DNA from: a virus
Taxonomy: Duplodnaviria; Caudoviricetes
DNA: 52,683 nucleotides
IMG/VR virus record: IMGVR_UViG_3300034008_000022
Coordinates: 1 to 52,683 of that record
Strand: one strand, 5' to 3'
Below the pieces are notes generated by a model. That model worked only from the letters and a program-made list of their open reading frames with translations. It had not been told where the DNA came from and made no database searches. The position numbers and the translations under genes are program-made. Of this stretch, positions 3,466-38,465 are shown piece by piece. Numbering within the stretch: position 1 is the stretch's first letter; each line of letters starts with the position of its first letter.

Positions 3466-6400
3466 ATGGGTCTCGCCCGCTCAGTCTCGGTTCGTCTCGA
3501 CGCGAACGTCTCCGGCTACATCGCGAAGATGAACAGCGCGGGCGCCGCCACGTCGGCCGCCATGGGTCGGGCCGACAAGTCCGTCGTCGGCCACAGCAAG
3601 GGGCTCGCCCTGCTGGGCAAGAGCGCTGCTGTGGGCGGGCTCGCCGTCGCCACCGGCCTCGGGTACGCCGTGAAGACCGCCGCCGACTTCGACGCCTCGA
3701 TGTCCAAGGTCGAGGCGGCCACCGGCCGTGGCGGCGCCGGACTCAAGGCACTCCGCGACGCCGCGATCCAGGCCGGCTCTGACACCGCCTTCTCCGCCTC
3801 CGAGGCGGCGGGCGGCATCGAGAACCTCGCGAAGGCCGGAGTCTCCTCGCAGAACATCCTCGGCGGTGGGCTCCGGGGCGCCCTCGACCTGGCCGCCGCC
3901 GGCGAGCTCGGAGTTGCTGACGCTGCCGAGATCGCCGCGACCGCGCTGACCCAGTTCAAGCTCAAGGGTGCCGACATCCCCCACGTCGCGGACCTGCTCG
4001 CGGCTGGCGCGGGCAAGGCGCAGGGCGAGGTGTCCGACCTGGCCGCGGCGCTGAGTCAGGCCGGCCTGGTGGCCGCCGGCTCGGGCCTGTCCATCGAGGA
4101 GACCACCGGCACGCTCGCGGCGTTCGCGTCCGCCGGCCTGACCGGGTCGGACGCCGGCACGTCCTTCAAGACGATGCTGCAGCGGCTGCAGGCGCCGATC
4201 GGCGCCGGCGCGAAGGAGATGGAGCGGCTCAACGTCTCCGCCTACGACACCCAAGGCAACTTCATCGGCATGGCAGGGGTCGCCGATCAGCTGCGCGACC
4301 GGTTGAAGGGCATGACCAGCGAGCAGCGCGACGCCTCTCTGGCCACCATCTTCGGCTCCGACGCCGTCCGGGCGGCCCGTGTGCTCTACGAGCAGGGTGG
4401 CCGCGGGATCCGGAAGTGGACCGCCGCGGTCGACGACCAGGGCTTCGCCGCGGACACCGCCAAGACGAAGCTGAACAACCTCAAGGGCGACGTCGAGCAG
4501 CTCGGCGGTTCCTTCGAGACGGCGATGATCAAGCTGGGGTCCGGCGCGCAGTCCCCGCTGCGCGGCGTCGTGCAGGACATCACGAGCGAGATCAACAAGC
4601 TGTCCAAGGACGGGACGCTGGACCGGTGGGGCGAGAACGCGGCGACCGCCATCAGCGGCGTCATCGACGTCGCCAAGGACCTCGGTCCGGTGGTCGGCTC
4701 GGCGTTGAGCACCGTCGGGTCAGGCGTGAAGACCGTTGTCGAAGGATTCAGCGCGCTGCCGGACGGTGTCCAGAAGGCCCTGGTCACCGGTGCTGTGGTT
4801 GCAGCCGGCGCGAAGAAGCTCGGCGCGACCTCGCTGATCGGCGCCGCCGCGAAGACCGTCGGTGGTGGTGGCCTCGGCGGCAAGGGCGGCGTGACACCGG
4901 TGTTCGTCACCAATATGGGCGCCGCCGGGCTCGGTGGTGCCGCTGGCGGGGCTCCAGGTGGCGGCAAGGCCGGGAAGGCGGCCGCAATAGGCAGGGGCGT
5001 GAGCAAGGGCCTCGGTGTTGCCGCCGTTCTTACTGTCGGCGGCGCGATCATGGGGCAGGCGGCCACCAAGAGCCTCGCGGCCTCCGTGGCCTCCGGCGTC
5101 GCTACAGGCGCGTCTGCTGGGTTCCTCGTGGCAGGACCAGCGGGTGCCGCTGCCGGCGCCGCTGTGGGGGGCCTGGTGGGCGCCGCCGTGCACCAGAACC
5201 CGAAGAATCCATCGACGGCCTACCAAGACGCCATCACGCCGAAGAACGCGAAGAACGTGCAGCTGCTGGCGCAGTCGTACTCGGTGCTCCAGAAGGAGCA
5301 GTCCCGGCTCACCAAGGGCGCATCGAGGGAGCGGCTCGCTCGGCTGCTCGACATCCCCGGTCCCGTCCGCGAGAACGCCGACAAGATGGCGGTGCTGCAG
5401 CGCAAGATCGGTGAGGCTACCGGGCTGACCACCAGGGAGGTCAAGGAGCAGGCCGCCAGCCTGGCCAGCGGCTCCGCTCCCATCACCAAGGCGGCCAGCA
5501 ACTTCAACACCTTTGCAGCCAATGCGAAGTACGCCGGAGTGTCGACGCGCGAGCTGACCGTGGGGTTGAGCACCCTGCCCACCCAGGTGCAGACCAAGAT
5601 CCTCACGCCGGGCGCCGTGGAGTCGAAGGCCGACGTGTCGGCGCTGGGCAAGCAGTACGGGCTGACACCCACTCAGGTCAAGACGATCATGCAGCTCGTC
5701 GGGGCCGAGAAGGCCGGCGAGAAGACCAAGAGAACCCGCGAGCAGCTGGCTGCGTTCAACAACACGAAGTACAAGCCGAAGATCGACGTTCAGGACAACG
5801 CGTCCTCGAAGGTCAAGAGCGCCCGTCAGGTCGCGATGTTCTTCGCGAAGGACTACCAGAGCACGCTGAAGGCGAACGACGCTGCCTCTCCGAAGGCGGA
5901 GGCTGCTCGCAAGCGGGCCCAGGCGTTCGCCAAGGCGTACCTCGCGGCCCTCAAGGCGAATGACGCCGCCTCCGGGAAGATCGCGAACGCTGTCCGTCTC
6001 GTCAACTCGTTCAACGGCCGGACGGCGACGTCGAACATCTACGTCATCACGCATCGGGTCGAGCGGATCTCTCGGCAGATCGTGGGCGCCGCAGCCAGTC
6101 TGTTCGGGGGGAGGCCGTCAGCGGACGGCTCCTTCTACGAGGGCGGCGTCCAGGCCTTCGCAGGGGGCGGAACGACCGAGGGTGGCGCCTATGTGCCGCG
6201 CACCCCGCAGATCCGCTCCGGCCGAGGCAGGGGCGTGCTGTGGGGCGAGGAGGAGACCGGCTGGGAGGCCTACATCTCCGGCAAGCCTGGACAGGCAGAC
6301 CGCAACCGCGACATCTGGCGGATGGCAGGCGAGCGGCTCGGCGTCCGCTTTGAAGAGTTCGCCGACGGCGGCCTGACCGCCTACGCCAACGGCGGTGGCA

Positions 6401-7176
6401 GGCGCCGCAGCCGGCCGCCCGGCCTCGACATCAGCGGCGACGAGTCGAACCGCGAGATCCACCGCGACATCCGCGCCTACGCGAAGGCGCTGGACCGGTA
6501 CGCCAAGAAGCACCCGAACTTCAACGACCTCACGGCCAAGCAGCTGCGCCGCCTGGAAGTGGGGATCAGGCGGGTGGTCGACCGCTACCAGAAGCAGGAG
6601 AAGGAGCTCGAGAAGGCTCGCGAGGGCTTCAAGGCGCTGCGCGAGGCGGCCAGGTCCTACAAGCAGGGCGTCCGGGAGGCCTACGTCGACGACCCCTTCC
6701 AGTCGACGCTGGGCGGATTCCGCAACCAGACCGACCGCGAGACGAAGAACCTCGAGGGGACGAAGGCAGACCTGCGGACGCTGTCGAAGAACGGGCTCGA
6801 CGGCGAGCTGTACAAGCAGCTGGCCGCGTCGGGGAACAGCGCGCTGATCGACCAGTTCTCGAAGCTTTCCCGCGGAGAGATCGAGGCTGAGGAGCGGCGG
6901 TTCAAGCGCCGCAACGCCCTGGCCGGGCAGCTCGCGGCGCAGGCCACCACCAAGGTCTACGCCAAGGACCTCCGTGATGCGGCAAGCGAGGTCAGGGACC
7001 TCAAGTACGGCATGCGCGAGCTTCGGCAAGAGCTTGCGCTCCTGCGCAAGGGGCGGCACATCGGGCACCACATCGTGAACTTCAACGGCCGGGTCTCCGC
7101 GAGGGACACTGAGGGTCTGGCGAAGAAGCTGCACGACAAGCAGCGGGTCGCCGCCCGCCTGGCGCGGCAACGATGA
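3466..7176 (+). CDS. Tape measure protein
   Basis: 1236 aa, Ala/Gly-rich, TP901-like core (TAFSASEAA, GSDAGTSFKTML), AGGAG SD. Confidence 0.95.
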   Translation: MGLARSVSVRLDANVSGYIAKMNSAGAATSAAMGRADKSVVGHSKGLALLGKSAAVGGLAVATGLGYAVKTAADFDASMSKVEAATGRGGAGLKALRDAAIQAGSDTAFSASEAAGGIENLAKAGVSSQNILGGGLRGALDLAAAGELGVADAAEIAATALTQFKLKGADIPHVADLLAAGAGKAQGEVSDLAAALSQAGLVAAGSGLSIEETTGTLAAFASAGLTGSDAGTSFKTMLQRLQAPIGAGAKEMERLNVSAYDTQGNFIGMAGVADQLRDRLKGMTSEQRDASLATIFGSDAVRAARVLYEQGGRGIRKWTAAVDDQGFAADTAKTKLNNLKGDVEQLGGSFETAMIKLGSGAQSPLRGVVQDITSEINKLSKDGTLDRWGENAATAISGVIDVAKDLGPVVGSALSTVGSGVKTVVEGFSALPDGVQKALVTGAVVAAGAKKLGATSLIGAAAKTVGGGGLGGKGGVTPVFVTNMGAAGLGGAAGGAPGGGKAGKAAAIGRGVSKGLGVAAVLTVGGAIMGQAATKSLAASVASGVATGASAGFLVAGPAGAAAGAAVGGLVGAAVHQNPKNPSTAYQDAITPKNAKNVQLLAQSYSVLQKEQSRLTKGASRERLARLLDIPGPVRENADKMAVLQRKIGEATGLTTREVKEQAASLASGSAPITKAASNFNTFAANAKYAGVSTRELTVGLSTLPTQVQTKILTPGAVESKADVSALGKQYGLTPTQVKTIMQLVGAEKAGEKTKRTREQLAAFNNTKYKPKIDVQDNASSKVKSARQVAMFFAKDYQSTLKANDAASPKAEAARKRAQAFAKAYLAALKANDAASGKIANAVRLVNSFNGRTATSNIYVITHRVERISRQIVGAAASLFGGRPSADGSFYEGGVQAFAGGGTTEGGAYVPRTPQIRSGRGRGVLWGEEETGWEAYISGKPGQADRNRDIWRMAGERLGVRFEEFADGGLTAYANGGGRRRSRPPGLDISGDESNREIHRDIRAYAKALDRYAKKHPNFNDLTAKQLRRLEVGIRRVVDRYQKQEKELEKAREGFKALREAARSYKQGVREAYVDDPFQSTLGGFRNQTDRETKNLEGTKADLRTLSKNGLDGELYKQLAASGNSALIDQFSKLSRGEIEAEERRFKRRNALAGQLAAQATTKVYAKDLRDAASEVRDLKYGMRELRQELALLRKGRHIGHHIVNFNGRVSARDTEGLAKKLHDKQRVAARLARQR

Positions 7177-18447: not shown

Positions 18448-18602
18448 TGACCGTGGCCGCTGCGCACGCGACCACCTGCCCCTGCCGGCTGGCGCAGATC
18501 GCGATCGACCAGCACGCCTACGCGGTCCTGCGGGACTGCCCCACCTTCGAGGCACTCACCGCGCTGTTCACCGGCCCACCGCCACGCAAGGAGACCACCT
18601 GA
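18447..18602 (+). CDS. 51-aa micro-protein (H..CPC...C)
   Basis: TGATG overlaps at both ends. Confidence 0.55.
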   Translation: MTVAAAHATTCPCRLAQIAIDQHAYAVLRDCPTFEALTALFTGPPPRKETT

Positions 18603-20041
18603 TGCCCACCACAGCCGAGAAGATCCTCGCCCTCGCCAAGTCCCAGGTCGGCGTCAAGGAAGGTCGCTCAGGTGGACGCGGGAACAACAACACCCGCTAC
18701 GCCGACGAGGTGCCCGGCCTGGAGTGGGCCGACTTCCAACCCTGGTGCGCCACGTTCGTCTCGTGGCTCGCGCTCAAGTCCGGCATCGCGGCGCTCTACC
18801 CGCGCACCGCCTCGTGCGACGTGGCCGGGTCCTGGTTCAAGAAGGCCGGCCGCTGGTCGGAGTACCCCGCTGTCGGCGCGCAGGTGTTCTACGGCTACCC
18901 GCACGACCTCAACCACACCGGCATCGTGGTCAGCTTCGACGCCGACTCGATCACCACGATCGAGGGCAACACCAACGACGACGGTGGCCGTGAGGGTGAC
19001 GGGGTGTACCTCCGGAAGCGTCTGCGCCGCGGGAAGAACGTCATCGGCTACGGCTACCCGCGCTTCCCTGAGGGGATCGTCTCTGCGGACCCGAAGTGGA
19101 GCAAGGCCCCCGCGCCGACCCCGAAGCCGCCGGTGACCGCACCGCCCGTCACTGCCCCACCCTCGACGGTCGGGTTCAAGCTCGGCCGGATCGACTTCAC
19201 CGACTGGTCCCACTGGAACACCGTCGGCCCGGCCGGTCTCCGAACCTCCGTGGGCTCAGGGCTGTGCGGCACGTACCACAAGGCCACGCAGGGGCTCGGC
19301 TTCACCGACGGCGACTACATCGAGCGCCGGGCATGGATCCGCGAGATCACCCAGCACGGCGCATACCACTTCGCCGAGCCGCTGGTGTCCAACGGCGAGA
19401 TCCAGGCCCGCTACTTCCTCGACTTCGCCAAGGTCGAGGGCGGCGACCTCCGCCCGATGCTCGACCTGGAGGGCGACAAGTACCGCGGCAACATGAGTCG
19501 CGCCGCGCTCACCAAGTGGGTCGGCCAGTTCGTCAACGAGGTCAAGCGGAAGCTGGGCGTCGCCCCCTGGATCTACACCACCTGGGACCTCGACGACAAC
19601 TTCGGCTGCCCACTGTGGGTGCCGCGCTACAACGACGCGATGAAGCTGCCCCGCGTCCCCGAGCCGTGGGCCACCTTCGACGCCTGGCAGTTCTCCAACG
19701 GCCACGACGGCAAGCCCAACCGGATGCCGGGCTTCTCCGGCGTCCCGCTCGACCTGAACACCTTCAACGGCGACCCCGCCGCGATGATCCGCCGCTTCAC
19801 CCTCGGCACACCCACACTGGAAGAGGACGACATGACCCCCGCACAGATGGACCAGCTGCTCACCAAGGTGCAGACCATGATCGACACCGCGATCGACAAG
19901 CGCGTCGGCGACGTCGTACCGATCCCGGCGAACCTCGAGGGCGTGTGGAAGGAAGGCAACGACGAGCTGACCGTCGCGTCCGCGCTGTCCTACATCATGT
20001 CCAAGGTCGGCGCACCGGCCGGGGAGCAGCCGGGAAAATAG
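18602..20041 (+). CDS. Endolysin: CHAP peptidase/amidase + GH25 muramidase + C-terminal helical domain
   Basis: PWCATFVSW, HTGIV, TIEGNT (CHAP); D.SHW, KATQG, GAYHF, LDLE, WQFS, DLN (GH25). Confidence 0.93.
   Translation: MPTTAEKILALAKSQVGVKEGRSGGRGNNNTRYADEVPGLEWADFQPWCATFVSWLALKSGIAALYPRTASCDVAGSWFKKAGRWSEYPAVGAQVFYGYPHDLNHTGIVVSFDADSITTIEGNTNDDGGREGDGVYLRKRLRRGKNVIGYGYPRFPEGIVSADPKWSKAPAPTPKPPVTAPPVTAPPSTVGFKLGRIDFTDWSHWNTVGPAGLRTSVGSGLCGTYHKATQGLGFTDGDYIERRAWIREITQHGAYHFAEPLVSNGEIQARYFLDFAKVEGGDLRPMLDLEGDKYRGNMSRAALTKWVGQFVNEVKRKLGVAPWIYTTWDLDDNFGCPLWVPRYNDAMKLPRVPEPWATFDAWQFSNGHDGKPNRMPGFSGVPLDLNTFNGDPAAMIRRFTLGTPTLEEDDMTPAQMDQLLTKVQTMIDTAIDKRVGDVVPIPANLEGVWKEGNDELTVASALSYIMSKVGAPAGEQPGK
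19823..19834 (+). promoter_or_regulatory. Putative in-frame internal translation start of endolysin (GAGGA...ATG 19832), 69-aa C-terminal product
   Basis: EEDDM coded by gaagaggacgacATG right after the GH25 domain. Confidence 0.6.
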
Positions 20042-20079
20042 ATCCGCCGGCCGAGCCCACACCTGGGCCTGGCACGGCG
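20032..20079 (+). promoter_or_regulatory. Putative -1 frameshift signal: G_GGA_AAA + stop + stimulatory hairpin
   Basis: Heptamer 20032-20038 in phase, TAG 20039-41, hairpin 20045-20079. Confidence 0.75.
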
Positions 20080-20859
20080 ATCTACCGCAGCCTGCACGCG
20101 AACGTCCAGCAGACGGATTCGCCTGCGGTCGCCGCGCAGCTGATCTCGGTGCTGCTCGAGCCGGTCAACCCGGCCGAGGTCCCCGATGTGGTCGTGCTCA
20201 ACGAGCTCGGCACGCTGGCCCTGCAGACCCACGTCCGTCGGCTCATGTCCGAGCGGGTCCCCGACGTCTGGGCGTCCGCGAAGTGGCACAGCGACGGCAG
20301 CCGCGTCGACGACCGCGACGCCGTGATGATCGTGTGGCGCGCCGAGGTCTTCCAGTACATCCGAGAGACGATCGAGATCCTGCACGGCGGCAAGTCCGGC
20401 GTCACTCCCACCCGGGTGGTGCGGCGGGTCCTGCTCGAGCACCGCGCCACCAGGAAACGGGTGTGGAGACAGGGCACGCACACCGTGCACGGCGTCGAGC
20501 GCAACGGCGTCGCGTTCTCGGTCATCCCTGGCCAGCTCGACCGCGCCGAGGTCGCGTTCCCGAGGATCGCGGCCGACGTGCTGGAGGCGGCCGTCACGGC
20601 ACCCGTCGAAGGGTCCGGTGACCTCAACGTCGACGCCCTCGCCGAGGCGAAGCTGCCACCGGCGAAGCGCACGCCGTGGTTCCCGATGAACACCATCGGC
20701 AAGGTCGCCGCGTTCGCGAACCCGCCGAGGGGGACGCACGGCAACCGGTGCATCGACCAGCGGTGGATCCGCGGCCGCATCCGGGTCCTGTCGATAGCGG
20801 TGCTGCCGAAGCGGAGCTCGGACCACAACCCCGTGCTCGCCATCGTCGAACTCACCTGA
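20032..20859 (+). CDS. EEP (endonuclease/exonuclease/phosphatase) domain, probably translated as a frameshift fusion to the endolysin C-terminus
   Basis: HAN, PDVVVLNE, TH, GDLN, ID, SDHNPV motifs; -1 frame relative to endolysin; no start codon between the stop and the first motif. Confidence 0.8.
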   Translation, partial: GKIDPPAEPTPGPGTAIYRSLHANVQQTDSPAVAAQLISVLLEPVNPAEVPDVVVLNELGTLALQTHVRRLMSERVPDVWASAKWHSDGSRVDDRDAVMIVWRAEVFQYIRETIEILHGGKSGVTPTRVVRRVLLEHRATRKRVWRQGTHTVHGVERNGVAFSVIPGQLDRAEVAFPRIAADVLEAAVTAPVEGSGDLNVDALAEAKLPPAKRTPWFPMNTIGKVAAFANPPRGTHGNRCIDQRWIRGRIRVLSIAVLPKRSSDHNPVLAIVELT

Positions 20860-20870
20860 GGAGAACCATC

Positions 20871-21083
20871 GTGACGTCTGACGCTAATCCGACCCCCGTC
20901 CCTGCTCCCGCCTCGAGGTTGAGAGCCGCAGCGAGGGACGCCGAGGGTCTGCTCGTGGTGTTCGACTGCCTCGTGCGCGCCATCCTGCACGCAGACCCCG
21001 ACAAGGAGCCAGACGTCCTCGCCCGCCTCAAGCGCGAAGCGTCGGCCTATCACGAGTCGCTGCACGAATCCAACCTTCCGTGA
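20871..21083 (+). CDS. Hypothetical protein
   Basis: GAGGAG SD before GTG. Confidence 0.65.
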   Translation: MTSDANPTPVPAPASRLRAAARDAEGLLVVFDCLVRAILHADPDKEPDVLARLKREASAYHESLHESNLP

Positions 21084-21517
21084 GCGTCATCTCCCACCGC
21101 CGCGCGATCCGGGCGGCCCGCCGCGACGACCACGTCGAGGCCGTCGCCGACGCCTGGCTCAGGGTCCCTCACCACGAGCGGGTGGCCTTCCAGGAGCGCT
21201 ACGAGGACCTCCACGCGGCCGTCTCCCGCCTGTCCGCCCACCAGCACGCCACCACCCACCGAAGGAGCATCACCGTGTCCTCACCGCTCACCCCCGGGAC
21301 GCCTGTCGTCAAGGACGACCCAGCCAAGCCCTACAAGGCCTTCGCGGCCGCGCTCCTGGCGTTCCTGCTCGTCGCCGTCCGCGACTACTTCGCAGGTGCC
21401 GACGAGATCGCCTGGGAGGGGTTGCTGGCCAGCGTCCTGTCCGGGCTCGTGACCTTCCTGGTGACCTACTTCACCAAGAACCCGAAGGTCACCACCACCA
21501 CGAGCCGAGAGGTCTGA
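21080..21517 (+). CDS. Holin-like 2-TM protein (second in-frame start at 21275)
   Basis: KA.AAA..TM..W..TM..VTY...N pattern; AAGGAG SD before GTG 21275. Confidence 0.7.
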   Translation: MSVISHRRAIRAARRDDHVEAVADAWLRVPHHERVAFQERYEDLHAAVSRLSAHQHATTHRRSITVSSPLTPGTPVVKDDPAKPYKAFAAALLAFLLVAVRDYFAGADEIAWEGLLASVLSGLVTFLVTYFTKNPKVTTTTSREV

Positions 21518-21518
21518 C

Positions 21519-21929
21519 ATGCCTGGAGAAGCGAGCACCACGGGAGCCGGCATCGCACTGGACGCGATGACCGGCCGCGCCACACAGACCGCCCGCACCA
21601 CCTACCTCGCGCTGCTGTCGGCGGCCCCGACGGACTCGACCACGGTGGCCACGATGAGCGAGGTCACCACCGCTGGCTACGGCGGGCGGAAGGCGGTCAC
21701 CTGGAGCGCGCCCACGGGTGATCCTCAGGTCACCTCGAACACCAACGCGATGACCTTCGGTGCGTTCACCGCAGACCCGCCGTCGGTCGGCTGGCTGGCG
21801 CTGGTGTCCTCGGCGTCCGGCACCACCGGGGACCTCATCTACTTCTGGACCGTCGACTCGGCCCGCGACGCTGCGATCGGGGACAGCATCACCGTTGCCG
21901 TTGGCGCGGTCTCGATGTCGCTCGACTGA
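21519..21929 (+). CDS. Virion structural/fibre-associated protein
   Basis: YLAL..A.P....EV...GY..R.AV.W motif common in phage fibre subunits. Confidence 0.65.
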   Translation: MPGEASTTGAGIALDAMTGRATQTARTTYLALLSAAPTDSTTVATMSEVTTAGYGGRKAVTWSAPTGDPQVTSNTNAMTFGAFTADPPSVGWLALVSSASGTTGDLIYFWTVDSARDAAIGDSITVAVGAVSMSLD

Positions 21930-21984: not shown

Positions 21985-23760
21985 GTGACTGTCTCCTACG
22001 GGGCGTTCGGCACGGTCTCCCACGGGACCGCGTCGTGCACACCCGCGTATCCGTCGCCGACCGCTGGGCAGGGCCTGTTCCTGCTCGTCGCGTTCGCGGA
22101 AGCCACCGGCACCCTCCCAGACACCCCCGCAGGATGGACGCTGCTCGGGTCGTCCTACGGCGGTGGTGGCACGTTCGGTGCCGACGCCGGCCCCCGTGGT
22201 GTGGCCTGGTATCGGCGAGACGCCGACGCGACCGGTTCCGAAGGCACCACCACGCTCACAGTGACCGCCGCCGGATCAGCGACCGGTCGAGCGATCAGCG
22301 GCTACATCGTGTCGATGACGAAGACGCTCGCCGCATGGCAGACATGGGTCGGTGCCAGCGCGGACACTACCGCCGGCACCGGCTACTCGACGACGATCAG
22401 CCCGGTCGAGCAGGGCCAGGCCGGTGACATCGCCCTGCTCGGGACGGCGTGGATCCCGGACACGGTCACCCAGTCCGCGCCGACCCTGTCCTGGACGGGC
22501 TACGGCGGCGCGATCACCGGCCGCACCGCCGCCGCGAACACCCAGGGCAACAACGTCCGCATCATCCTCCAGTCCGCGACGGTCACGGGGACCAGCTCGG
22601 GGAATGTCGTGTTCGGGATGACCGCGTCGGCGGCGTCGACCGGTGCGACCGCGATGCTGCTGATCCGGGACGCGGCCACCGTCGAAGCGACACTCACCGC
22701 GGCCGGGGCGGGCACCTCAGCCGGTGCCGCCGCGATCGAGCTCACGCTCGGAGCGGTGATTCACCACGTCGCCGCTACGGGAACGACGGCGACGACCGGC
22801 GCAGCCTCGATCGCCCGCGACCTTGTCCTCGCGGCGAGCGGCGCGGGAACGGCGGTGGGCTCGGCGGCCATCGTGCTCGAGGCGCGCACCTACTCGCTGG
22901 CCGCTGCCGGCGCAGGCGCGAGCACAGGCTCGGCCAGCGTCACCCGACTGGCCGGCGTGACCGCCGCTGGGACCGGAGTGACCATCGGCTCGGCCGCGAT
23001 CGCCCTCGGCGCCGTCACGCGCCAGATCACCAGCGCGGCCACAGGCGTCACCTCCGGGACCGCCGCACTCACCCGGCAGACCACCCTGGCCGCGATCGGC
23101 GCATCCACCGCGTCCGGCACGGCTACGATCGCCCGGCAGCTGCCGCTGGCCGCGTCCGGTGCCCAAGCCGCCACCGGGGCCGCGACGATCGCGCGCACCG
23201 CCGCTCTCACCGCAGCCGGCGCCGGAGTCAGCAGCGGCTCGGCGGCCATCACGATCGCTGCTGTGGCGCACGCCGTGACCGCATCCGGTACGGCGACCTC
23301 GACGGGGTCTGCGGCCATCACCCGGTCGGCAGCCGTCACCGGCGCAGGCGCGAGCACCCCGACCGGCACGGCCGCACTGTCCATGGTCACGGCCCATCAG
23401 GTCACCGCGAGCTCGGCCAGCGTCACCACCGGAGCGACAGCCGTCACCCGCGCGGCCGCGCTCACAGCGACTGCGGCGTCCACCAGCAGCGGCACGGCGA
23501 TCCTGGCGGGCACCGTCGCCCTCACCGCATCCGCCGCGGCCCAGCTGGCCGGAGACGCCTCGCTAGCCATTCTCCTGGCCGTCACTGCGGACGGCGCAGG
23601 CTCGACCGGTGGAGAGGCCGCGGTCACAGCGGCCACCCTCCGCGACGTCACCGTGCTCTCGATCCGCGAGGTCACCCGCCCCTTCACCGTGGCCGACCGC
23701 AGCCGCAGCGTCACCGTCACCGACCGGCAGCGCGTCGTCGGCATCCGCCTGATCCCGTGA
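21985..23760 (+). CDS. Ala/Thr/Gly-rich repeat fibre protein
   Basis: About 15 repeats of 20-23 aa (L.A.G.G...G.A.I); AGGAGG SD. Confidence 0.7.
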   Translation: MTVSYGAFGTVSHGTASCTPAYPSPTAGQGLFLLVAFAEATGTLPDTPAGWTLLGSSYGGGGTFGADAGPRGVAWYRRDADATGSEGTTTLTVTAAGSATGRAISGYIVSMTKTLAAWQTWVGASADTTAGTGYSTTISPVEQGQAGDIALLGTAWIPDTVTQSAPTLSWTGYGGAITGRTAAANTQGNNVRIILQSATVTGTSSGNVVFGMTASAASTGATAMLLIRDAATVEATLTAAGAGTSAGAAAIELTLGAVIHHVAATGTTATTGAASIARDLVLAASGAGTAVGSAAIVLEARTYSLAAAGAGASTGSASVTRLAGVTAAGTGVTIGSAAIALGAVTRQITSAATGVTSGTAALTRQTTLAAIGASTASGTATIARQLPLAASGAQAATGAATIARTAALTAAGAGVSSGSAAITIAAVAHAVTASGTATSTGSAAITRSAAVTGAGASTPTGTAALSMVTAHQVTASSASVTTGATAVTRAAALTATAASTSSGTAILAGTVALTASAAAQLAGDASLAILLAVTADGAGSTGGEAAVTAATLRDVTVLSIREVTRPFTVADRSRSVTVTDRQRVVGIRLIP

Positions 23761-26299: not shown

Positions 26300-27448
26300 A
26301 TGGCCGCACGACGGGGAAAAGGCGAAGGTGGCATCACGCAGCGCCACGATCACGCGACGTGCCCACCGCGCGTCGACGGCGTGCGCCCGGTGCACCGCTG
26401 CCAAGGCCGGTGGGTCGGCACCCTCCCGCTGCCGGACTCCGACCTCCGCAAGACGATGTACGGCCGGACCCGCAAAGAGGTCAAGATCAAGCTCGACACC
26501 GCCCGTCGCGACCGAGCTGAGCACATCCTGGTCACGTCCTCGCCGACCGTCGAGACATGGCTCCGCTACTGGCTGGACACCATCTGTGTCGAGCGCGGCC
26601 TCAAGACGAACACCCTCAAGTCGCATCGCTCGAAGGTCGAGCAGTATCTGATCCCTCACCTGGGGCGGATCCGCTTGGACAGGCTCGCGCCCGAGCACCT
26701 ACGGCGCATGTACGCACAGATGCGTGAGCAGGGGCTGGCGGAAGCCACGTTGCGACAGGCGCACGCCGTACTCCGCCGAGCGCTCGAGGTCGCCGTGCGC
26801 GAACGCAAGGCCGCCAGGAACGTGGCCGCCCTGATCGACCCGCCCAAGACGATCAGGGGTCAGCGCCAGCCACTCAGCCTCGCCGACGCACAGAAGGTGC
26901 TGCACGGCGCCGACCTGCGATGGTACGTCGCGCTCTACCTCGGCCTGCGCCAAGGCGAAGCGCTCGCGCTGCGCTGGTCAGACGTCAATCTCGACCAAGG
27001 CTTCCTGGTCATCAGTCGGTCCTTGGTCCGCAAGCCGGGGGCCGGCCTCATCTTCGACACCCCGAAGTCCGTGGCCTCGCACCGCGCCGTGCCGCTACCT
27101 GTGGTCGTGCTGTCCCGGTTCAAGGTCGCCTGGGCCGAGCACCTAGCCACCGGGGGGCACGAGGACGCCCTGATCTTCAACCACAACGGCGCCCCGCTCG
27201 ACCACCGCGCGGACTGGCAGGCGTGGGCCGACCAGCTCTCATCCGCTGGCGTGCCCCACGTCGCACTCCACGCCGCCCGCAACACCGCAGCCAGCCTGCT
27301 CGAGCAAGCCGGCGTGCCGGACCGGGTCGTCGCACAGATCCTCGGACAGACCAGCGTCAAGGTGACTCACGGCTACCAGAACGCCGATCTGCCCCGTCTC
27401 GGTGAGGCTATGAAGGCGCTGGAAGGACTGCTAGCACCGGAGGACTGA
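26300..27448 (+). CDS. int: Tyrosine integrase
   Basis: GLRQGE.L.L.W.D, PKS, LHAAR, ILGQ...Y; AAGGAGG SD. Confidence 0.95.
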   Translation: MAARRGKGEGGITQRHDHATCPPRVDGVRPVHRCQGRWVGTLPLPDSDLRKTMYGRTRKEVKIKLDTARRDRAEHILVTSSPTVETWLRYWLDTICVERGLKTNTLKSHRSKVEQYLIPHLGRIRLDRLAPEHLRRMYAQMREQGLAEATLRQAHAVLRRALEVAVRERKAARNVAALIDPPKTIRGQRQPLSLADAQKVLHGADLRWYVALYLGLRQGEALALRWSDVNLDQGFLVISRSLVRKPGAGLIFDTPKSVASHRAVPLPVVVLSRFKVAWAEHLATGGHEDALIFNHNGAPLDHRADWQAWADQLSSAGVPHVALHAARNTAASLLEQAGVPDRVVAQILGQTSVKVTHGYQNADLPRLGEAMKALEGLLAPED

Positions 27449-36670: not shown

Positions 36671-37980
36671 CTCGATCCACGCCATACGAGTGCTTTCTGG
36701 CGACGAAGGTCGTCCGGACGAACGAGATCGGGCCCGAGATCTCGCTCGATCGGATCCACCCGCACCTGCACGACTGGCAGGCCGAGATCGTCCAGTGGGC
36801 AGTGCGTACCGGCCGCGCAGCCATCTGGGCGGACACCGGGCTCGGCAAGACCGTGATGCAGGTCGAGTGGCTCAAGCACGTCTCGGCGGAGGGCTACGGC
36901 CTCATCGTCGCCCCGCTGGCCGTCTGCCACCAGACCGTCCGGGAAGCCGCCACCGTCGATGTGCACGCCACCTACGTCCGCACGCCGGACCAGCTCGACG
37001 GCCCTGGCGTCTACGTCACCAACTACGAGATGGTCGAGCACTTCGACCCCTCCATGTTCCGCGCCGTCGTCCTCGACGAGGCGTCCATCCTCAAGCAGAG
37101 CGACGGCAAGACGCGGACCATGCTCATCCGGCACTTTGAGCCCGTGCCTTTTCGGCTCACATGCACCGCCACGCCGGCCCCCAACGATCCCGAGGAACTC
37201 ACCAATCAGGCCGAGTTCCTCGGTCACCAGTCCCGCGTGCACATGCTCGCCGCCTACTTCATCCACGACGACCAGGGCTGGCGGCTCAAGGGTCACGCGC
37301 GGGCCCCGATGTACCGGTGGATGAGCACCTGGGCTGTCGCCCTCCGTCGCCCGTCCGATCTTGGCTACCCCGACGACGGTTACCAACTTCCTGGGCTCGA
37401 GATCATCCCCGAGCTGGTCGACGTCGAGATCGAGCCAGAGGACGGCAACCTGTTCGGCGTCAAGCTCGGCGGGGTCAATGGGCGCTCGAAGATGCGCAAG
37501 CTGACGCTGTCGGCTCGGTGCGAGCGGGCGGCCGAGCTGGTAGCAGCCGAGCCTGACGAGCCCTGGCTGCTGTGGTGCGGACTGAACGCCGAGGCCGAGG
37601 AGCTCGCACGGCTCATTCCCGACTCGGTCAACGTGTCGGGCTCGTGGTCGCCCGAGGCCAAGGCTGAGGCCCTGCTCGACTTCGCTGACGGCAAGATCAC
37701 TCGCCTCATCACCAAGCCCAGCATCGCCGCGTTCGGCCTCAACTGGCAGCACTGCGCCCGCATGGCGTTCGTCGGCCTGTCCGACTCCTATGAGGCCTAC
37801 TACCAGGCCATCCGGCGCTGCTACCGCTACGGGCAGCGGCGAGTCGTTCACGCGCACGTGATCCTGTCCAGCGCCGAGCGACAGATCGCCGGCAACATCG
37901 CCCGCAAGGAACGCGAGGCGGGCTCCATCACCACCGCGCTGGTCGCCGAGATGCGCCGCGCCCGAGAGGACCGGACGTGA
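36667..37980 (+). CDS. SF2 (SNF2-like) helicase
   Basis: DTGLGKT, LDEAS, TATP, GLNWQ, QAIRR..RYGQ. Confidence 0.88.
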   Translation: MTRSTPYECFLATKVVRTNEIGPEISLDRIHPHLHDWQAEIVQWAVRTGRAAIWADTGLGKTVMQVEWLKHVSAEGYGLIVAPLAVCHQTVREAATVDVHATYVRTPDQLDGPGVYVTNYEMVEHFDPSMFRAVVLDEASILKQSDGKTRTMLIRHFEPVPFRLTCTATPAPNDPEELTNQAEFLGHQSRVHMLAAYFIHDDQGWRLKGHARAPMYRWMSTWAVALRRPSDLGYPDDGYQLPGLEIIPELVDVEIEPEDGNLFGVKLGGVNGRSKMRKLTLSARCERAAELVAAEPDEPWLLWCGLNAEAEELARLIPDSVNVSGSWSPEAKAEALLDFADGKITRLITKPSIAAFGLNWQHCARMAFVGLSDSYEAYYQAIRRCYRYGQRRVVHAHVILSSAERQIAGNIARKEREAGSITTALVAEMRRAREDRT

Positions 37981-38465
37981 CTGAGGAATGGCGCCCGGTG
38001 GTTGGGTTTGAGGGTCGGTACGAAGTGAGCAGTCAGGGCCGCGTGGCAAGCCTCCCGACTCCGAAGTGGCCCACTCGGCGCATCCTGGCGCTCGTGTGCC
38101 GGAAGCGCGACGGGTACATCGTTGCCTCGCTGTGGGCTAACGGGCACCAGGTCAACCGGAAGGTTCACCAGTTGGTCTGCGAGGCATTCAATGGTGCCCG
38201 CCCGGAGGGTGCGATTACCCGCCACCTGGACGGCGATCGTACGAACAACGTCCCAGAGAACCTTGCGTGGGGAACGTGCACCGAGAACAACCTCGACGCG
38301 GTCACTCATGGCACCCACTGGGCCGCGCGCAAAGCGGTCTGCAAGCACGGTCATTCACTGGCCGGCGAGAACCTGTACATCAACGCGACGAGCGGTAACC
38401 GCCAATGCCGGACCTGTCTCAAGCGTGCCCGTGATGACTACTCAGCCAGAAAGGCATCCGCATGA
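37977..38465 (+). CDS. NUMOD4-HNH homing endonuclease
   Basis: WRPV.GFEG.YEVS..GRV (NUMOD4); VH.LV..AF, RHLDG..NN..NL.W.T..EN. Confidence 0.9.
   Translation: MTEEWRPVVGFEGRYEVSSQGRVASLPTPKWPTRRILALVCRKRDGYIVASLWANGHQVNRKVHQLVCEAFNGARPEGAITRHLDGDRTNNVPENLAWGTCTENNLDAVTHGTHWAARKAVCKHGHSLAGENLYINATSGNRQCRTCLKRARDDYSARKASA

Follow-up and report, generated by a model that had tools for sequence, protein, structure and literature searches.

Organization of the lysis locus

The IMG/VR virus record IMGVR_UViG_3300034008_000022 was analysed over its whole length of 52,683 bp (hereafter, the window), and the subject of this work is a lysis locus on its plus strand, in which the gene of a CHAP-GH25 endolysin is followed, in the -1 frame, by the coding sequence of an EEP phosphoesterase domain that has no canonical start codon between the endolysin stop and its first motif. 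The record is classed as linear, with an estimated completeness of 67%, and its source is most likely a temperate, siphovirus-like, high-GC phage with a soil-actinobacterial host. The endolysin contains both catalytic domains and stands in a phage lysis setting; its CHAP part shares 67-78% DNA identity with the endolysins of 69 phage records, 66 of them from Streptomyces phages. The features of the locus and the evidence used to define them (aa, amino acids; nt, nucleotides; ORF, open reading frame; SD, Shine-Dalgarno; AF2, AlphaFold2; GC3, G+C content at third codon positions) are as follows.

18602-20041, plus strand: endolysin gene, 479 aa (ORF list; Pfam; PHROG endolysin families)
18737-18970, plus strand: CHAP domain, aa 46-123 (Pfam, E 3.4e-8)
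19202-19699, plus strand: GH25 domain, aa 201-366 (Pfam, E 8.8e-19)
19823-19834, plus strand: internal SD-like GAGGA and in-frame ATG (19832-19834), where the C-terminal module begins (sequence)
19832-20038, plus strand: C-terminal module of 69 aa between GH25 and the candidate slip site (sequence)
20021-20026, plus strand: SD-like GGGGAG, with a spacing of 5 nt to the heptamer and of 11 nt to a stop-overlapping ATA (sequence)
20032-20038, plus strand: candidate slippery heptamer G_GGA_AAA, in phase and adjoining the stop codon (sequence; codon usage)
20039-20041, plus strand: zero-frame endolysin stop TAG (sequence)
20039-20084, plus strand: predicted hairpin, core stem 20046-20078, lower extension 20039-20044/20079-20084 (RNA fold)
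20038-20076, plus strand: Pro-rich linker in the -1 frame (translation; aligns with the Pro-rich linker of homologue P0005)
20077-20859, plus strand: EEP domain in the -1 frame, with a TGA stop at 20857-20859 (Pfam PF03372; AF2; Foldseek; GC3)

Candidate slip site and predicted downstream structure

Because the endolysin gene ends with the codons CCG (20030-20032), GGA (20033-20035), AAA (20036-20038) and TAG (20039-20041), the heptamer G_GGA_AAA is in phase for a -1 slip. The codons bear out what the first-pass annotation, made from the sequence alone, had claimed about a heptamer directly before the stop, and the hairpin that it described just after the heptamer, with a GCCCA top stem and a 4-nt loop, was also recovered by folding. 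The core stem begins 7 nt 3' of the heptamer, and its top stem GCCCA/UGGGC closes a loop of CACC. For the 81-nt segment 20030-20110 a folding energy of -35.8 kcal/mol was predicted (z score -3.33), and none of 200 shuffled sequences was as stable. The GGGGAG motif upstream is ambiguous in its role, as it may be a frameshift stimulator or a re-initiation site.

The codons of which the heptamer consists are rare in the window. AAA accounts for 6 of 267 lysine codons (261 are AAG), GGA for 69 of 942 glycine codons and CCA for 49 of 633 proline codons; the heptamers of the window and of the related locus L002, which is described below, are therefore built from disfavoured codons. This codon choice points to selection acting on the nucleotides. 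In the whole window, 13 heptamers of the form XXX(AAA or TTT)Z are found on the two strands, and in-phase XXXYYYZ sites occur 12 times in 10,422 coding-like codons, with AAA in two of the 12.

Elsewhere in the window, only one in-phase X_XXA_AAZ heptamer is combined with a -1 ORF, namely C_CCA_AAA at 2386-2392. The stop of ORF 1823-2443 follows 17 codons later, the -1 ORF extends to 2847, and GC3 switches between the frames near 2440; the fold predicted downstream has a z score of -2.27. The site is located between the genes of the major tail protein (1011-1529) and the tape measure (3466-7176), the latter being followed by minor tail proteins, which is the place expected for the conserved tail-chaperone frameshift. 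By analogy, 1823-2847 is a probable tail assembly chaperone G/GT frameshift and can be regarded as an internal control, for which no PHROG or family match was obtained. Two further heptamers were set aside. GGGAAAA at 26314 stands at the start of the putative integrase ORF 26300-27448, where it is in phase by codon position; no -1 ORF follows, and it was taken as a chance occurrence (in a local GC3 test it came out as out of phase, an effect of the non-coding sequence upstream). GGGTTTG at 38004 is part of the next gene and out of phase. That gene (37977-38465), whose N-terminus we take to be HNH/NUMOD-like, starts at a GTGA overlap with the gene before it.

The reading frame of the EEP domain

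In the EEP frame, no ATG, GTG or TTG occurs between GTG 19945 and GTG 20149, and hence none ahead of the first strand of the domain. This agrees with the first-pass annotation, which had found no such codon between the stop and the first EEP motif and had named GTG 19945, with an overlap of about 95 nt, as the nearest alternative; it is the sole canonical start upstream of the first strand (beta1). Over 19945-20038, GC3 amounts to 0.88 in the endolysin frame vs 0.48 in the EEP frame, and from 20042 on it is 0.83-0.96 in the EEP frame, the value for the stretch before GTG 20149 being 0.83. In that same stretch, 19 of 28 aligned residues are identical to L002, compared with 58-60% over the whole domain. 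The GC3 switch at the stop and the conservation of the stretch before GTG 20149 therefore indicate that the coding frame changes at the endolysin stop and that no ATG, GTG or TTG serves the EEP. The -1 ORF is a coding frame without its own start which overlaps the end of the zero-frame ORF.

In the record, this frame is represented by P0002 (236 aa), which starts at GTG 20149. This start was rejected, as a protein beginning there would be without beta1 (residues 15-23 in the AF2 model), the NVQ Asn and one half of helix 1. The start at GTG 19945 was rejected on GC3 and on the lack of an equivalent start in L002. The 13-residue linker that precedes the domain was modelled without secondary structure, and the pLDDT of its first 4 residues is below 50.

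Related loci

The EEP family is rare. A word-index search returned 6 proteins, and a tblastn search of the window EEP against 50,697 phage records gave no match at E<=1e-3 and one meaningless match at E<=10. Two scans of IMG/VR viral contigs recovered no EEP locus. One distant locus was obtained from genome contigs, and in the class of genome G001 an EEP match at E<=1e-20 was present in 1 of 401 genomes; metagenome contigs yielded only two loci, L002 and L003.

The EEP of L002 is 58% identical to that of the window, and the endolysin upstream of it has a different N-terminal region, without a family, and a GH25-like part. This endolysin ends with CCC CCA AAA GCC TGA, so that an in-phase C_CCA_AAA (2303-2309) is separated from the stop by a single codon. 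The EEP again lies in the -1 frame, which has a stop at 2150-2152 and no ATG, GTG or TTG until GTG 2384, located 3' of the NVQQTD motif. GC3 across the junction is 0.91 in the endolysin frame before and 0.96 in the EEP frame after it. A predicted stable structure begins 6-7 nt past the heptamer (z score -3.01; 1 of 200 shuffles as stable), and GGTGGAG is placed 11 nt before a CTG that overlaps the stop and 2 nt before the heptamer. Directly after the EEP of L002 an r1t-type holin is encoded (PF16945, E 9.8e-16; phrog_443). L002 has another in-phase heptamer, CCCAAAG at 1424, far from the stop; in-phase heptamers therefore do arise by chance.

In L003, the EEP is 41% identical and also lies in the -1 frame relative to the upstream ORF, and its start, GTG 406, overlaps the TGA stop (GTGA). 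Neither an in-phase heptamer nor an unusual structure was found there (z score 0.03; 91 of 200 shuffles as stable). The upstream ORF is 5'-open at the contig end and by eye resembles the end of an amidase-type endolysin. Of the three loci, the two without a start codon (window and L002) have the heptamer and the structure, and the one with a start codon (L003) has neither. The arrangement of heptamer, stop and structure followed by a -1 EEP, which the first-pass annotation had proposed to look for in other endolysins, was found in one of the two related loci with DNA (L002), the other having its own start instead.

Homologous proteins and in-frame fusions

A word-index search for longer, fused forms of the EEP found none; a full search with a hidden Markov model profile against 1.84 billion representatives then detected such forms. 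It gave 563 matches at E<=1e-3, of which 30 clusters reached E<=1e-30. Nine of these 30 best clusters are proteins of 563-703 aa in which, according to Pfam, the EEP is C-terminal to peptidoglycan-hydrolase domains in a single frame.

In-frame fusions, from metagenome assemblies (Logan/ENA): P0011, P0013, P0019, P0020, P0021, P0024, P0027, P0029, P0034

The domains ahead of the EEP in the nine fusions are CHAP with GH25, M15_4 with an Rv2525c-like domain, CHAP with an Rv2525c-like domain, an Rv2525c-like domain alone, or a partial GH25. In P0020, residues 1-402 are 53% identical to the window endolysin and are followed by a Pro-rich linker which leads straight into the EEP. Seven of the 30 clusters are stand-alone proteins with their own Met shortly before beta1. 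In another seven, the gene calls start within the domain, and four of these open with the V of NVQ, as is expected if an upstream start is lacking. P0005 and P0007 carry N-terminal extensions of 20-50 aa.

The SDH(N) strand is normally the last strand of an EEP domain. In P0019, P0021, P0034, P0023, P0026 and P0032 it precedes the NVQGTD motif, and the protein ends after GTHG..ID, which looks like a circular permutation of the domain. With the stand-alone homologue P0030 as the query, tblastn returned only genes annotated as 'phosphoesterase' or hypothetical, 25-30% identical, in 8 records (6 from Streptomyces phages of 121-127 kb and 2 from Yosif). Gene 5 of Yosif is located at 1.7-2.0 kb, far from the usual position of lysis genes.

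The C-terminal module and its candidate internal start

For the 69-aa module, no Pfam or PHROG match and no usable Atlas match were obtained, and a protein search with this region returned the window's own protein as the sole match. The modules of the window, L002 and L003 are weakly similar (28-31% identity; pairwise BLASTP E values of 0.009 and 0.027), and AF2 predicts, with low confidence, a two-helix hairpin (pLDDT 65.6). All three loci, whose EEP is out of frame or separate, encode the module, which the in-frame fusion P0020 lacks. Homology with the N-terminal extensions of P0005 and P0007 was considered and dropped, as only Pro-rich segments matched.

An SD motif followed by an ATG occurs at the same place, the start of the module, in all three loci: next to the pair listed above for the window, these are GGAGGAG with ATG 2070 in L002 (2058-2072) and GGAGGA with ATG 137 in L003 (127-139). 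The motif in L002 is made of two rare GGA codons. This conservation suggests an internally initiated small product. The frameshift fusion foreseen by the first-pass annotation remains probable, and its set of products was incomplete in that it missed this conserved internal SD motif and ATG (19832), which may add shorter products.

Fold, residues and probable role of the EEP domain

The -1 frame at 20035-20856 matches Pfam PF03372 (Exo_endo_phos) with E 1.6e-5 and 25.2 bits, a marginal pass at a cut-off of 24.5, and has no match in NCBIfam. An AF2 model based on 25 homologues reached a pLDDT of 93.2 and a pTM of 0.90, and it displays the four-layer alpha/beta sandwich of the EEP superfamily. 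With this model, Foldseek found 294 PDB chains at E<=0.001 (best E 2.7e-13), headed by Tdp2, the Bacteroides EEPs 3g6s and 3mpr, CNOT6L and nocturnin; TM scores of about 0.65 were obtained for nucleases, deadenylases and phosphatases alike, so that the modelled fold singles out no substrate. In a comparison of 25 sequences, E57, D196, N198 and D241 never vary, and H149 and S262-D263-H264 recur in at least 90%; N23, from the NVQ motif, is present as well. We take these N/E/D/N/D/DH residues to be the catalytic set of EEP enzymes. Pfam, AF2 and residue conservation agree with the earlier reading of a complete EEP domain which extends in the -1 frame to 20859.

The EEP is probably an accessory lysis enzyme that acts on an envelope phosphoester, such as a phosphodiester-linked wall glycopolymer or a lipid. 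Such an envelope target is suggested by its place in the lysis cassette, between the endolysin and the holin in L002, and by its fusion to peptidoglycan hydrolases. Among bacterial proteins, an 832-aa ORF of a Microlunatus aurantiacus contig (L005, 1231-3729) combines an N-terminal hydrophobic stretch, judged by eye, with an EEP of this family (profile E 3.8e-17) and an M23 peptidase (E 1.6e-22), and is a cellular fusion of an EEP with a wall hydrolase. Two further hints point to the envelope: a 316-aa bacterial EEP homologue (L008) has an N-terminus that by eye resembles a signal peptide, and the nearest PDB sequences include the glycan mannosyl-6-phosphatase 4c1r, with a weak profile match (E 0.0039).

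The first-pass annotation had guessed, with due hedging, at a LysB-like accessory. The domain does not belong to the LysB family, because its fold differs: PF03372 is its sole Pfam match, and the model shows an EEP fold in place of the cutinase-like alpha/beta-hydrolase fold. It may be a functional analogue of LysB at most, and that part of the guess keeps its hedged character.

Sequence record and neighbouring genes

The stretch 18500-21000 is contained completely in two Logan contigs from two sequencing runs, both of biocrust metagenomes (one of 28,747 nt with a depth of 12, the other of 52,401 nt with a depth of 20.4), which match it without a single difference or gap; no insertion or deletion at 20032-20038 is among the differences listed for these contigs. 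Since the two contigs possibly represent the source samples, they exclude an assembler artefact and do not amount to independent support. Runs X3 and X4 contain only small shares of the stretch. In run X4 (2025), low-depth contigs on 18683-20234 come from a relative that is about 85-92% identical across the endolysin and the module, as estimated from the differences per piece, and the match of one of these contigs ends at 20049, just beyond the endolysin stop.

Two small ORFs follow the EEP. They may be lysis-cassette genes or include a holin candidate, an assignment made from position only.

20871-21083, plus strand: small ORF, 70 aa (ORF list; no family match)
21080-21517, plus strand: small ORF, 145 aa, with a hydrophobic C-terminal part (ORF list; no family match)

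Further 3' of the lysis genes, a 136-aa ORF (21519-21929) matches the 'head protein' PHROG phrog_240 (E 9.4e-10), and a 591-aa ORF (21985-23760) is rich in Ala/Thr/Gly repeats and has no family match; this is an unusual position for genes of a structural type. The 382-aa ORF at 26300-27448 was read as an integrase from the sequence alone, which would make the phage temperate.

Discussion

A programmed -1 frameshift that appends the EEP domain to the endolysin is the best-supported explanation of the locus, and we regard it as probable. According to this explanation, most ribosomes would stop at TAG 20039 and release the 479-aa endolysin, composed of CHAP, GH25 and the C-terminal module. A minority would pause at the hairpin while GGA occupies the P site and AAA the A site, slip back by one base on G_GGA_AAA and continue through the Pro-rich linker into the EEP, up to 20859. 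The minor product would have about 752 aa (479 + 273) and would contain CHAP, GH25, the module and the EEP. Initiation at the internal ATG 19832, if it takes place, would add two further products, the module of 69 aa by itself and a module-EEP protein of about 342 aa. The sequence signals, the switch of frame, the modelled fold, the arrangement in the relatives and the natural fusions are what the analysis shows; the slip, its efficiency, the use of the internal start and the substrate of the EEP are inferred. The frameshift fusion proposed in the first-pass annotation gains support from the recurrence of the arrangement in L002, from the contrast with L003 and from the natural in-frame fusions.

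The alternative that survives best, although we consider it doubtful, is re-initiation or new initiation at a near-cognate codon that overlaps the stop (ATA in the window, CTG in L002), which would be aided by the GGAG-type motif and would give a free EEP of about 273 aa. Several observations favour it and at the same time weigh against frameshifting. The GGAG-type motif lies exactly 11 nt before the ATA (of ATAG) and the CTG (of CTGA) in the two loci, which fits termination-reinitiation, and translation of L002 from the CTG gives an N-terminus similar to those of stand-alone homologues such as P0030 and P0033. In L003 the geometry is the same and the start is canonical (GTGA), which shows that a relative can produce a separate EEP with a start of its own; seven of the best 30 clusters are stand-alone proteins, each with a Met before beta1. 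However, ATA and CTG are very weak starts in bacteria. Re-initiation also leaves unexplained two different, exact, in-phase X_XXA_AAA heptamers made of rare codons, as well as the stable structures that begin right where the proposed start lies or just beyond it, of which L003 has none. The Pro-rich linker would moreover stand at a free N-terminus without an obvious role, whereas in P0005 and in the fusions it joins the EEP to an upstream part.

Other points also count against the frameshift explanation. The SD-like motifs are 5 and 2 nt from the heptamers, closer than is the case for the stimulator of dnaX. Among the loci with readable DNA, the signal is present in two only; the structures downstream are of different shapes in these two, and a pair of sequences is too few for an analysis of covariation. 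The ratio of nonsynonymous to synonymous substitutions (dN/dS) between the EEPs of the window and L002, in a rough Nei-Gojobori estimate, is about 0.65, with dS compressed by the extreme GC3 bias, so that purifying selection is not clearly shown and the value is hardly informative. The sequencing runs listed for the stretch include no RNA runs.

This dN/dS value is also one of the points in favour of decay, in which the EEP frame would be an unexpressed remnant of an in-frame fusion or of a separate gene; the canonical start is missing, and one 1-nt deletion in an in-frame fusion could give the present layout. We consider this quite unlikely. Although the two EEPs are no more than 58% identical, the frame has stayed uninterrupted through 273 codons in the window and through the complete domain in L002; GC3 is 0.93-0.96, the catalytic residues are invariant and the structural model is confident. 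Two independent breaks would, furthermore, both need to have fallen on in-phase heptamers beside a stop.

An error of assembly or sequencing in the G/A run, which would conceal a single in-frame CHAP-GH25-EEP gene, appears very unlikely. Homopolymer runs are error-prone, and in-frame fusions are common among the homologues; on the other side stand the exact match of the two Logan contigs, possibly from the source samples, the shortness of a four-base run, and L002, an independent contig in which the same -1 offset occurs at a different sequence and therefore argues against a sequencing error. The indel that the first-pass annotation had named as a refutation did not appear in the two contigs. 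Its other refuting option, an independent start at GTG 19945 giving a 304-aa EEP with an Arg-rich leader of 30 aa, is the least probable of the explanations, for although this is the one canonical start at hand and P0005 and P0007 have extensions of their own, GC3 and L002 speak against it, and in our own reading the leader looks like out-of-frame sequence without similarity to those extensions. Decay, sequencing error and the start at 19945 are unlikely even when taken together.

The frameshift explanation can be compared with several known systems. The -1 frameshift of the tail assembly chaperone G/GT in lambda-like and actinobacterial phages was reportedly described by Levin in 1993 and Xu in 2004. 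It has in common with the present locus an in-phase X_XXA_AAZ heptamer near the end of the upstream ORF and a short major product accompanied by a C-terminally extended minor one; here, in contrast, the proteins are lysis enzymes, the extension is a catalytic domain of about 260 aa, the slip would occur 0-1 codons from the stop and the hairpin is strong. The cassettes of Escherichia coli dnaX and of IS3 elements likewise combine a heptamer, a 3' stem-loop and an upstream SD-like motif, but in dnaX the SD motif is reportedly about 10 nt upstream, vs 2-5 nt here, and the shift shortens the product, whereas here it would lengthen it. The in-frame endolysin-EEP fusions have the same order of hydrolase, Pro-rich linker and EEP, and differ in that a single frame gives every molecule an EEP, in that they are without the 69-aa module and in that some of their EEPs appear to be circularly permuted.

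Mycobacteriophage LysB is similar as a second enzyme beside the endolysin that is not directed at peptidoglycan; it is a cutinase-like serine esterase encoded by a separate gene, while the present domain has the fold of a metal-dependent phosphoesterase and no cutinase signal. The endolysins Lys170 and CTP1L reportedly have an internal SD motif and ATG at the start of the C-terminal module, as in all three loci here, but the present module has no known wall-binding family, and internal initiation from it is put forward from the conserved motif. In the literature, judged mostly from search listings, no endolysin with an EEP or Exo_endo_phos domain was found. A frameshift out of an endolysin gene was found only for genes 39/40 of Alteromonas virus vB_AspP-H4/4, in its genome announcement, where a -1 frameshift from the endolysin into an overlapping downstream ORF is predicted (PMC5658483); supplementary files lay outside this search. 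The downstream part in that case is described as a podovirus internal virion protein and not as an EEP of a lysis cassette (PMC5658483). What would be new in the present locus is that a -1 frameshift like that of the tail chaperones serves to extend an endolysin by a catalytic domain.

A wider interpretation can be offered as a tentative one. EEP phosphodiesterases may form a hitherto undescribed accessory lysis class of high-GC soil phages, which would cut or remove wall glycopolymers linked by phosphodiesters, or act on membrane lipid, filling a LysB-like part for actinobacteria without mycolates, with a dose set by fusion, by a coupled gene or by frameshifting. In the present phage, through the frameshift together with the internal start, four products (the endolysin, the endolysin-EEP, the 69-aa module and the module-EEP) would be made, and these may assemble through the helical module.

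If the frameshift explanation is true, lysis enzymes would be added to the few phage proteins made in a ratio that ribosomal frameshifting fixes. The EEP family is, in addition, systematically mis-annotated, because gene callers truncate the EEP or place its start wrongly, as in the call on record at GTG 20149 and in the four homologue clusters that start at the V of NVQ. The link between EEPs and wall hydrolases, seen in the phage fusions and in the bacterial combination of EEP with M23, suggests an envelope phosphoester as a target in lysis and may be a lead for enzybiotic domains. The relatives, with their three gene arrangements, provide a natural experiment that bears on the reasons for which selection might favour a fixed ratio.

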